A stretch of 64,000 bases of DNA from an uncultured Gammaproteobacteria bacterium (GTDB lineage Bacteria; Patescibacteriota; Patescibacteriia; Magasanikbacterales; GWA2-37-8): positions 5,418 through 69,417 of the forward strand of contig CAZXML010000004.1 in assembly GCA_964641245.1 (NCBI GenBank), in the 5' to 3' direction. Numbering within the stretch: the stretch's first letter is position 1; each line of letters opens with the position of its first letter. Made by a program: the position numbers and the translations under genes. The notes beneath the pieces were generated by a model, which saw only the letters and a list, made by a program, of their open reading frames with translations, had not been told where the DNA came from and did no database searches. This document shows, one piece after another, positions 54,948 through 57,821 of this stretch.

Positions 54948-57821
54948 ATGTCATTTCTCACTAAAATTTTCGGTGATCCGAACGCCAAAGTAATCCAAAG
55001 CATTCAGCCTATAATTGCCAAAATAAATTCCCTAGAGCCGGAAATGGCCAAATTAAGCATGGCCGATTTGCGCGCCAAAACAGGTGAGTTTAGAACTCGT
55101 TTGGCAAAAAATGAAACCTTGGACGACATTTTGCCCGAGGCTTTTGCCGTCGTCCGCGAAACTTCCAAACGCTTAACCGGTATGCGTCATTTTGATGTGC
55201 AACTAATCGGCGGTGTGGTTTTGCATCGCGGCAGTATTGCCGAAATGGGCACTGGAGAAGGTAAAACTCTGGTGGGAACATTGCCTGTGTACTTAAATGC
55301 TCTGGCCGGCAAGGGTGTGCATGTTGTTACCGTAAACGATTATCTGGCCAAACGCGACGCCGTGTGGATGGGTCAAATTTACGATGCGCTGGGATTAAGC
55401 ATTGGTATTATTCAACAGCAATTAACATCATACAAATACAACGCCAATTCTGTCATTTCGCCCGCCACGTCTGTCATTCCGAGCGAGCGAAGCGACGAGG
55501 AATCTATACCGATGAAAGAAAATAAATCTTTATTAAACGGAATAGATCCCTCGTCGTCTACGGCCTCGCTCGGGATGACAGGTGAGGACCTCTCCGAAGG
55601 CAGCGTCGCCGACAAAGAACGCGACGTTAAAGGAATGTTCAAAGTAGAAGCCGAATATCTGGAACCGTGCGCCCGCCAAGAAGCGTATCGCTGTGATATC
55701 ACTTACGGAACCAACAATGAATTTGGCTTTGATTATTTGCGCGACAACATGGTGCAGAATAAACACGAAATGTCGCAGAGGCCTTTTTATTTTGCGATTG
55801 TGGACGAAGTCGATTCTATTTTAATAGACGAAGCGCGCACTCCGCTTATTATTTCCGCGCCCGCCCAGGAATCTTCCGACAAATATATTAAATTTGCCGC
55901 GCTTGTCCGCCAGTTAAAAGAAAATGAAGATTACAACGTAGACGAAAAAATGCGTTCATCCACTCTTACCGATGTTGGTTTAAATAAAATGGAAAAGTGG
56001 TTGGGGGTAGATAATATTTACGCTGAAGGCGGCATGTCTATGGTTCACCATTTAGAGCAGGCGTTGCGCGCGTACGCGCTATTCAAAAGAGACCGCGATT
56101 ATATTGTGGATAACGGCGAAGTAATAATCGTAGACGAATTTACCGGCCGGAAAATGCCGGGACGTCGTTATAGCGAAGGTTTGCATCAGGCCATAGAAGC
56201 GCAGGAAGGCGTAAAAATTCAACAGGAAAGCCAAACAATGGCTACTATTACGTTTCAAAATTATTTCCGTCTTTACGAAAAACTTTCCGGCATGACCGGA
56301 ACAGCCGTCACCGAAGCGGAAGAATTCGGAAAAATTTATAAATTGGAAGTGGTGGTAATTCCAGCCAACAAAAAAAATCAGCGTCATAATTTACCGGACA
56401 GAATTTACAAAACCGAAGAGATAAAATATAAAGCTATCGCCCAAACCGTAAAAGAACTTCAGGAAAAAGGCCAGCCGGTTTTAATCGGCACCGTGGCCGT
56501 AGACAGAAACGAAGCTCTCTCACTTTATTTGCAAAGAGAGGGGATTGCGCACGAAATTTTAAACGCCAAGAATCACGAACGTGAAGGTGAAATTATTGCT
56601 CAAGCCGGACGCGCCGGAGCGGTCACTTTAGCTACCAATATGGCCGGCCGCGGTGTGGACATTATTTTAGGAGGAAACCCGCCGGATTCTGCCGAAGCCG
56701 AAAAAGTGCGCGCCGCCGGCGGTTTGTTTGTTATCGGTACCGAACGCCACGAAAGCCGTCGCATAGACAATCAGTTGCGCGGTCGGGCCGGCCGTCAGGG
56801 AGATCCGGGTGAATCTCAGTTTTATCTTTCCACCGAAGATGATTTAATGCGTATTTTTGCCGGCGAACGCATCCGTTCGGTAATGGAAACTCTAAAAGTT
56901 CCGGATGATATGCCGATAGAACAAGGAATGATTTCCCGCATTATAGAATCTGCCCAAAAAAAAGTGGAAGGCATTCATTTTGATACCCGCAAACATTTAT
57001 TGGAATATGATGATGTGCTTAATCGCCACCGCGAAGTTATCTACGGTAAACGCCGGGAAATTTTAGACGCGTTTGAAGCGGAGAAAAATAAGACCGTAGC
57101 CGAAGGCGCTAAAACAATGCGCGAAATGATTCTGGAAATGGTGGAGCAGGAAATAGAACAGGTAATTTCTTTTCATACCAACACCGAAGACAGAAAAGAC
57201 TGGAACGTAACCGAAATCATTCAAACCGTCACCACCATATTCCCACTATCCGATGCCGAGAAAAAAACCATCACCGAATTATCCGAAAATAAGCACGAAC
57301 AAAAAATGGAAGATGCGGCCATCAGAACCGGCTTTATTGAATATTTATTAAAACTAGCCAACCAGAAATACGAAACCCTGCTGGAAAAAACCGTGCCTGA
57401 TCCGGAAATGCTGTTAGAAATAGAAAAACAGGTATTACTCCGGGCCATAGATAATTTATGGGTAGAACATTTAGTGGCCGTAGATTATTTACGCACCGGC
57501 ATTGGTTTGCGCGGTTACGGTCAGCACGACCCGCTGGTAGAATACAAAAAAGAAACCTACCGCATGTTCAACGAACTGATGAATCTTATCCAAAAAGAGG
57601 TTGTTTATTTAATTTACAAAGTTAATCTGGGAATTCAATTGGCCCCGTCGGTAATGAACAGCAATGCTTTAAATTTTAGCGGCGCCGCTAAGACGGCTGA
57701 TAGCGAAGAGTATATAGCCAATAGCGGAAAGGAAAAAGATGGCGAAGGAAAAGTTATTGGCCGCAATGACCCGTGTCCGTGTGGTTCTGGAAAGAAATTT
57801 AAGCGCTGCCATGGAGCGTAA
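54948..57821 (+). CDS. secA: Preprotein translocase ATPase SecA, carrying an in-frame palindromic insert in NBD1
   Basis: Walker A [44 protein letters not shown] and C-terminal zinc site [14 protein letters not shown]. At 957 aa it is larger than typical because of the insert. Confidence 0.95.
   Translation: [957 protein letters not shown]
55451..55580 (+). mobile_element. Composite palindromic element (two inverted family B units) inside secA
   Basis: TGTCATTCCGAGCGAGCGAAGCGACGAGGAA...[50 bp]...GATCCCTCGTCGTCTACGGCCTCGCTCGGGATGACA, plus an extra TGTCATTTCG at 55451. It is translated in frame. Confidence 0.7.

Follow-up and report, generated by a model that had tools for sequence, protein, structure and literature searches.

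A palindromic dimer of TGTC-tagged units lies in frame within the secA gene of a Patescibacteria genome

The secA locus and its product

We analysed a stretch of 64,000 nucleotides (nt) of the contig CAZXML010000004.1 (hereafter, the window), which belongs to a genome of the Magasanikbacterales within the Patescibacteria or Candidate Phyla Radiation (CPR), and focused on its secA gene, whose open reading frame (ORF) contains a palindromic repeat element. The gene, the loop that holds the element, and the parts of the element are the following:

54948-57821, plus strand: secA, an intact ORF of 957 amino acids with all SecA domains
55413-55670, plus strand: codons of the whole SecA loop, residues 156-241, including non-repeat parts (SYKYN...) that are kept in Magasanikbacteria
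55446-55583, plus strand: codons of the repeat-derived peptide, residues 167-212 (46 residues)
55449-55460, plus strand: solo left end TCTGTCATTTCG, a direct repeat, with a matching left end at the same place in the relative L081
55472-55580, plus strand: palindromic element of family B (109 nt), in frame within secA and built as an inverted dimer of TGTC-tagged units; recognised by its inverted repeats and hairpin z-score
55472-55504, plus strand: left unit, comprising the TGTC tag, ATTCC, an 18-nt loop, GGAAT and then C
55505-55544, plus strand: AT-rich spacer of about 24% GC, partly palindromic itself
55545-55580, minus strand: right unit, which repeats the left one in inverted orientation and has GACA at its end

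The SecA protein of the window matched the Pfam families SecA_DEAD, SecA_PP_bind, P-loop_SecA, SecA_SW and SEC-C, and it matched Bacillus subtilis SecA with an E-value of 8.5e-244. Its catalytic motifs and domains were all intact, and its closest proteins in the databases were SecAs of Magasanikbacteria and of other Patescibacteria. B. subtilis SecA (1tf2) aligned to residues 3-155 and 242-956 of the window protein, and between these two blocks the window SecA had 86 residues versus 7 in B. subtilis, that is 79 extra residues. An earlier examination of the DNA without database searches (the sequence-only reading) had estimated about 75, and had taken the extra segment to be derived from a repeat. 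The latter applies to residues 167-212 (about 46 residues), while the remainder is a non-palindromic loop conserved in Magasanikbacteria: the non-repeat loop common to their SecAs is about 40 residues longer than that of B. subtilis, and its DNA is not palindromic. Residues 167-212 correspond to the 109-nt palindrome together with the solo left end just 5' of it, and they stand in place of the native EKRIKPE. The repeat-derived peptide is serine-rich (11 serines out of 46 residues) and acidic, with a grand average of hydropathy of -0.37.

The insert-free orthologues closest to the window SecA were those of L002 (88% identical) and L054 (83%), and the proteins P0004 and P0007-P0022 (79-84%). 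The stretch in question comprised 93 residues in the window SecA versus 54 in these closest insert-free orthologues, and the difference coincides with the palindrome and the solo repeat end. The extra segment is lineage-specific, which is the outcome that the sequence-only reading had anticipated for such an alignment. Its statement that characterised SecAs have about a dozen residues at this place was correct for B. subtilis, Escherichia coli, Mycobacterium tuberculosis and Thermus thermophilus, but not for Thermotoga maritima, whose SecA (3jux, 3din, 4ys0) has a far longer loop at the same position (chain residues 130-235 versus 96 query residues). The T. maritima insertion is located in this loop as well, after the GL(S/R)VG(I/V)I strand and before the helix that comes next, and it showed no relation to the repeats of the window. 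It is a native protein segment that resembles the conserved non-repeat loop of Magasanikbacteria in position and size, and not the inserted element; we know of no link between it and repeats. Since T. maritima SecA carries its own unrelated insertion there, the loop of nucleotide-binding domain 1 (NBD1) is a naturally permissive and variable site.

The AlphaFold2 model of the window SecA, built from an alignment of 70 sequences, had a predicted local distance difference test score (pLDDT) below 50 for residues 170-212 only, in an otherwise confident NBD1. Residues 165-219 were modelled without secondary structure, and the native flanks of the insert were modelled as a strand (161-164) and two helices (220-228 and 232-237). 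The model fits an insert that protrudes, disordered, from the tip of an NBD1 surface loop, where the sequence-only reading had also expected it.

The leader of secA contains a further repeat of another kind. At 54850-54937, between a terminator-like hairpin (54808-54832) and the secA start, there is an inverted repeat of 30 nt (87% complementary) that consists of short repeats of the AAGTATTA and TACCTAATAC types.

Anatomy of the element in secA

The element has the sequence TGTCATTCC...GGGATGACA, with the boundaries TGTCAT...ATGACA. Complementarity is 94% between its outer arms (17 nt) and 77% within an inner 31-nt pair. When single-stranded, the element folds into one long hairpin, with an RNA folding energy of -65.5 kcal/mol versus -31.2 +/- 3.5 kcal/mol for dinucleotide shuffles (z = -9.7; 0 out of 200 shuffles folded as well), and the DNA fold gave z = -8.2. 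The palindromy of the element is far beyond chance, and the inverted repeats and the fold bear out its earlier description as two inverted family B copies around an AT-rich core. The GC content is 58-63% in the arms and 24% in the spacer, compared to 43% in the window. The solo left end at 55449-55460 is the remnant of an earlier element. The reading frame is open across the whole element, as had been noticed before and as both the ORF and a separate frame check showed.

An exact search for the 46-nt AT-rich core (55502-55547) across the window recovered the secA copy only. We found no Rfam match at E-values up to 5 within 55350-55700, and at gathering thresholds the whole window contained a single match, a tRNA. 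No terminator-like or promoter-like feature coincided with the element on the sense strand.

Related elements in the window

We searched the window for TGTCAT...ATGACA pairs with complementary ends. This census detected 9 full elements (dimers), and single units raised the total to at least 12 copies, versus 0-2 elements in shuffled sequence under the same thresholds; the proposal that the repeat family is present in multiple copies was thus upheld. The spacers of the dimers were variable (about 9-40 nt). Within one family, the terminal units of about 27-35 nt were conserved and the spacers were completely different. Apart from the secA element, the copies were the following:

12889-12965, unstranded: family A dimer, representative, intergenic
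4362-4424, 30926-31004, 37733-37800, 39325-39387 and 40899-40962: other family A dimers, all intergenic
28092-28128, unstranded: family B short form, intergenic, with a 9-bp stem (TGTCATCCC/GGGATGACA) and a 19-nt loop
46627-46670, minus strand: family B single unit (half element), intergenic
54675-54768, unstranded: intergenic dimer of family D, TGTCATTGCGA...TCGCAATGACA, located 180 nt upstream of secA
40316-40385, plus strand: family C dimer in rsmH (ORF 39832-40893), in frame, CHSERSEESLNNGEGSFVPLRMT, directly after PLDMRY
53775-53812, plus strand: single family B unit in the gene of an LVIVD-repeat protein (ORF 49936-53940), in frame, read as PVIPSEVVADEGF

The family A unit, TGTCATSCTGAAYTTRTTTCAGSATCT, is followed by its inverted copy in each of 6 copies, all 6 of them intergenic. 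It folds into a 4-nt tag, an 8-bp stem (ATCCTGAA/TTCAGGAT), a 5-nt loop and a 3-nt tail. The family B unit has the form TGTCATYCCGAGCGAG...CGACGAGGRAT, and its members are the secA dimer, the short form at 28092, the half element at 46627 and the single unit at 53775. The sequence-only reading had reported the same element at 28093, 46627 and 54675. The first two are indeed of the same family but consist of single or half units, not of the whole element, and the third is a dimer of a different family. It had overlooked the in-frame copies in rsmH (40316-40385) and in the LVIVD-repeat gene (53775-53812), and also the six intergenic copies of family A, a sister family.

No target-site duplication flanked any of the 10 copies that we inspected, and no common target motif was found in their flanks. 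The secA copy and some related copies were preceded by CGTC or GTC, which probably reflects shared ancestry.

The genes around mraZ and rsmH are bracketed by the three family A dimers at 37733-37800, 39325-39387 and 40899-40962. Two of these lie just upstream of a gene and overlap the start of its open frame, one at the gene of a beta-CASP nuclease (37776-39167) and one at mraZ (39370-39828), and the other lies just after rsmH; these dimers may affect the transcripts of the cluster.

When about 660 kb of related loci were searched under strict criteria, few full dimers were recovered outside the genome of the window, thus the density of copies differs between genomes. Metagenomes of groundwater, sludge, gut and marine origin contained the family A unit (26 nt, with five degenerate positions) in at least 120 stretches (loci L086-L165), so these units are not private to the genome of the window.

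In-frame copies in other genes

The family C dimer adds about 23 residues to the RsmH protein of the window: where Thermus RsmH goes from residue 123 to 128, the window RsmH goes from 158 to 186. The LVIVD-repeat protein (1334 amino acids) also contains a Peptidase_S74 chaperone domain, and the family B unit is located near its C-terminus. In total, 3 out of 12 copies were intragenic (secA, rsmH and the LVIVD-repeat gene) and 9 were intergenic, although open frames make up 93% of the window (binomial P = 7e-9). Nearly every frame of family A contains stops and none of its 6 copies was intragenic, whereas all three intragenic copies belong to families B, C and D, in which 2-4 frames are open; the association between stops and location had a one-sided Fisher P of 0.09, on small numbers. 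The presence of open-frame families inside genes is the pattern that would be expected from a selective filter acting on translated inserts. Because the elements are palindromic, a peptide of the VIPSE...SLGMT type is encoded by either orientation.

Occupants of the same loops in relatives

The NBD1 loop of SecA holds different elements of the superfamily in L081 (P0002), L082 (P0003), L083 (P0006), L028, L030, L031 and L043, and other palindromic inserts were found at this loop in L084 (P0005) and in several further proteins. Based on 902 conserved columns, the window SecA grouped with P0002 (94% identical), P0003 (93%) and P0005 (90.5%). All four of these proteins carry an insert, each of a different family, and the next branch (P0010) is without one. 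P0006, P0025 and P0034 were placed elsewhere in the tree, which suggests separate gains in those lineages. The first left-end remnant is common to the secA genes of the window and of L081, as is the beginning of a second one, after which L081 has a complete family C dimer. Such common remnants point to one early colonisation of the clade, followed by nested insertions.

A second insertion site was detected near query residue 721, in a loop between two long helices, which was occupied in at least 10 of the 120 listed relatives and unoccupied in the window. In L082, one 74-nt element was present at both sites of secA, with 3 mismatches between the copies (96% identical; the second site is seen e.g. 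within L082 2624-2764); the copy at the second site lies against an older family B unit, at that unit's right end. The two copies in L082 are direct evidence of repeated, in-frame insertion by such elements. The RsmH loop showed a comparable situation, with a baseline of 8 residues in relatives and different TGTC-type inserts at the same point in several of them.

Other short repeat-like peptides were also seen at the same SecA and RsmH loops, such as SDFRLQTS/SDFGLQTSE, KSQIPNxKSQ and KSEIRNPKSE (P0005/L084, P0045, P0046, P0144-P0150 and P0136). As judged from their sequences, these recurring peptides suggest further palindromic or tandem DNA families that are tolerated in frame.

The window SecA was identical to an NCBI entry (P0122) located on a contig of 74.6 kb. 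An assembly of another sample by the Joint Genome Institute (JGI; L085) was 99.96% identical to the window across an alignment of 19,053 nt (7 mismatches, 0 gaps) and contained the same insert, so that the element is present in a second assembly, as the sequence-only reading required. The relatives with the same type of insert came from independent assemblies of unrelated projects.

Relation to known repeat classes

Di Nocera, De Gregorio and Rocco 2013 (PMC3733652) described a superfamily of repetitive extragenic palindromes (REPs) with a CGTC tag, which is unpaired and of which TGTC is a common variant. The tag is followed by a stem of 8-9 bp that opens with A-T, T-A, a loop of 4-5 nt, and a 3-nt tail with the consensus CCA. 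These REPs occur mostly as inverted dimers with spacers of 20-100 nt that can fold as one large hairpin, and they are dispersed and mostly intergenic, with some in-frame intragenic copies and without a dedicated transposase (PMC3733652). They were reported from Proteobacteria, Chlorobi, Bacteroidetes, Spirochaetes and Thermotogae, and they include the Rickettsia palindromic elements (RPEs) RPE-4 and RPE-6 and the dRS3 of Neisseria (PMC3733652).

In the window, every unit begins with TGTC, which is unpaired in the folds of the units. The stem of the units is followed by a tail of three unpaired bases, which reads CTA in secA, CTx in family A and, in the relative L082, CCA. The window has 9 full dimers, that of secA folding as one hairpin, and the elements are multi-copy and mostly intergenic within the 64 kb. 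The L082 element has an 8-bp stem (ATTCCCGC/GCGGGAAT), a 5-nt loop and a CCA tail; this element and family A fit the published definition point by point. The host of the window, a member of the Patescibacteria, is not among the five phyla listed for the CGTC REPs. The recurrent use of the same SecA and RsmH loops across relatives, which we observed in the lineage of the window, is also not described for CGTC REPs; the recurrent intragenic site given in PMC3733652 is recB, in two Xanthomonas species only.

The sequence-only reading had drawn an analogy to the RPEs, and the relation appears closer than it claimed, as family A fits the superfamily that includes RPE-4 and RPE-6. This link rests on the published assignment of those two elements to CGTC families. 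RPE-1 type elements (Ogata et al. 2000, 2002, as summarised in PMC10969869) are palindromic and lie in frame in unrelated housekeeping genes. As far as that summary describes them, they resemble the secA element in being palindromes of about 100-150 nt, in an extra peptide judged to be compatible with the fold, and in a host with a small genome; by the same description, the whole RPE-1 element and its peptide are conserved, whereas in the window, which represents a different lineage, conservation is confined to the terminal units and the spacers are variable. As with the RPEs, the window copies lie in frame in housekeeping genes or other genes (secA, rsmH and the LVIVD-repeat gene), and the SecA site is in a loop predicted to be disordered.

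REPINs, which are pairs of REPs (Bertels and Rainey 2011, PMC3116915), are moved by RAYT transposases (REP-associated tyrosine transposases, of the Y1/HUH type), whose single-copy gene is flanked by REPs. They share with the window dimers an arrangement of two inverted hairpins with outermost tags and a spacer in between, a non-autonomous nature, the lack of target duplications and the occurrence of singletons as remnants of dimers, but their tag is GTAG and that of the window is TGTC.

Miniature inverted-repeat transposable elements, or MITEs, are also known in frame in bacteria, e.g. the intragenic enterobacterial repetitive intergenic consensus (ERIC), QMITE1 of Coxiella burnetii and the MITEs of Anabaena (PMC10969869). 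Similarly to the secA element, they are short and non-autonomous, have inverted ends and form translational fusions. The secA element does have terminal inverted repeats (the outer arms), and it is palindromic as a whole. MITEs, however, normally have target-site duplications and a recognisable parent insertion sequence (IS), and neither was seen for the window elements: duplications were absent from the 10 copies, and the window and about 85 related loci yielded no IS with matching ends that could be a parent. "MITE-like", the term used in the sequence-only reading, is therefore not the best label for an element for which no duplication or parent IS was found there, with variable spacers and with hairpin units paired as in REP dimers.

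We also considered and rejected three further classes of elements. A self-splicing intron or other structured RNA was discarded because there was no Rfam match in the region, and an intein because an insert of 46 residues is far too short. A diversity-generating retroelement was discarded because the sole match resembling a reverse transcriptase (12481-12906) corresponded to a domain of the RNase H type.

Origin of the secA insert

We consider it highly probable that the extra segment of secA is selfish repeat DNA, carried as a passenger by an essential gene in the form of a TGTC-hairpin dimer in a permissive loop. A non-autonomous element, or its predecessors, would have landed in the variable tip of the NBD1 loop, in an extension that was already specific to Magasanikbacteria. 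With a net gain of 39 codons and no stop, the ribosome would read through the hairpin, and SecA would carry a serine-rich, acidic and disordered excursion of about 46 residues with its fold undisturbed. The secA copy would persist because the loop tolerates insertions, and selection would remove the copies that break genes, so that most copies are intergenic and only open-frame families are left inside genes. The site would have been colonised repeatedly, resident remnants being overwritten by later nested insertions. By analogy with REPs and RAYT, movement may depend on an enzyme that recognises hairpins in single-stranded DNA; since no target duplication is left, a route through the tagged hairpin in single-stranded DNA is probable.

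Several points weigh against this explanation. The secA units depart from the published definition of the CGTC REPs, as they start with AT but have a stem of only 5 bp (ATTCC/GGAAT) and a loop of 18-20 nt, and for this reason we filed them as a relative or variant of the CGTC/TGTC REP superfamily and not as a typical member. Some CGTC families with exceptional loop lengths are mentioned in PMC3733652. A family B unit alone folds no better than shuffled sequences (z about +1). The long form with the secA spacer is unique in the window, hence its own mobility is putative. The length of 109 nt is not a multiple of three and the native EKRIKPE is gone, which indicates the product of several events instead of one clean insertion. 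A Pfam scan of about 55 ORFs of the window, which is a part of the genome, and the Pfam matches recorded for the flanks in relatives revealed no RAYT, Y1_Tnp, integrase or other transposase, in agreement with the literature on CGTC REPs. Finally, we infer that residues 167-212 are translated and retained in the mature SecA, and we assume that the insert is neutral.

The insert might instead be kept for a function, the hairpin tuning translation, folding pauses or mRNA decay, or the loop modulating the activity of SecA or the binding of a partner. A very stable hairpin (-65 kcal/mol) inside a coding region, the occupation of the same SecA and RsmH loops in many lineages, and the action of REPs as RNA elements in other bacteria would all agree with this. 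The occupants, however, differ in sequence, length and family among close relatives, and many close relatives are empty, which is a pattern of tolerance and not of requirement; the peptide is also predicted to be disordered, and the element lacks terminator-like and promoter-like features on the sense strand. We regard a retained function as unlikely. A classical MITE, that is a deletion derivative of an IS moved in trans by a DDE transposase recognising TG...CA ends, is distinctly unlikely. Several families of DDE transposases typically have TG...CA termini, the TGTCAT...ATGACA ends are sharply defined, and a length of 60-110 nt would be suitable, but target-site duplications were seen at 0 out of 10 copies and neither the window nor the flanks in relatives yielded a transposase. 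Moreover, single units are also found alone, and conservation is restricted to the terminal hairpin units, with spacers that differ completely within a family, as is typical of REP dimers.

It is very improbable that the element is left untranslated, either removed from the RNA or bypassed by the ribosome as in the bypass elements of some yeast mitochondria and in gene 60 of phage T4. Known translational bypassing does involve structures such as a long stable hairpin, but the three intragenic copies of the window (3 out of 3) keep the frame without stops and the stop-rich family A is never intragenic, and selection for an open frame is expected only if the ribosome reads through, which counts against bypassing. 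The SecA and RsmH proteins of relatives are also full-length, a weak point since they were found as intact proteins, and there was neither an Rfam match to an intron or ribozyme nor a segment long enough for an intein. It can hardly be credited that the insert is an artefact of metagenome assembly, chimeric at a repeat, or that secA is a pseudogene. The genome was assembled from a metagenome and repeats can cause misassembly; yet both flanks continue one secA in frame, the separate JGI assembly differs by 7 mismatches and 0 gaps over 19 kb, independent assemblies of relatives have the same type of insert, and the catalytic motifs and domains of SecA are intact.

Beyond the passenger origin of the secA segment, REP-type palindromes might be a general and continuing source of lineage-specific loop insertions in the housekeeping proteins of Patescibacteria. 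New copies would prefer resident remnants, and the loops (SecA NBD1, SecA around residue 721, and RsmH after PLDMR) would act as long-lived landing pads with turnover of their occupants. We hold this extension tentatively, as a possibility that is more doubtful than not.

Novelty and implications

In the literature that we searched, we found no prior description of REPs, MITEs, RPEs or REPINs in Patescibacteria or CPR, and no publication linking Rickettsia palindromic elements with SecA. The novelty claimed by the sequence-only reading therefore stands for this lineage, in which no paper was found to describe such repeats, but not for the phenomenon, as intragenic REPs in several phyla and the expression of RPE-decorated proteins of Rickettsia are on record. 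What is new is the occurrence of such a repeat in this lineage, together with the SecA and RsmH loops that are occupied recurrently, as hot spots, and the turnover that can be seen among their occupants, whereas in-frame palindromic repeats in housekeeping genes were known.

The CPR host represents another lineage of small genomes with little spare intergenic space, and the repeats offer a tangible origin for some insertions in CPR proteins that had lacked an explanation. In essential proteins of CPR bacteria, disordered loops encoded by repeats are to be anticipated in annotation and structure prediction. The recurrence of different elements at the same loops maps, in a natural setting, the positions at which SecA and RsmH are permissive, and the turnover of elements has left a natural record in the near-identical pair in one secA and in the stacked solo ends. 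For the enzyme that mobilises CGTC/TGTC REPs, a good place to look is among small CPR genomes, both those with TGTC repeats and those lacking them. If the loops do act as landing pads, a comparison of gene content with REP load across small genomes could reveal it.

Other repeats and genes in the window

A G+C-rich palindrome, CCCCTTTTAGGGG, occurred six times within 1.6 kb (5799, 6699, 6797, 7222, 7298 and 7360), around and after a DUF559 gene (Vsr-like endonuclease) at 6767-7228. A DUF559 gene is also located directly upstream of secA in the relative L081. Long AT-rich intergenic hairpins made of heptamer-like AATTA(A/G)CAA repeats were found at 14408-14471, 24024-24094 and 43585-43676, and also at 6069-6084; they form a separate family, unrelated to the TGTC elements. 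Finally, a gene of the 23S rRNA intervening-sequence protein family (PF05635) was located at 49022-49408, far from any rRNA gene in the window.

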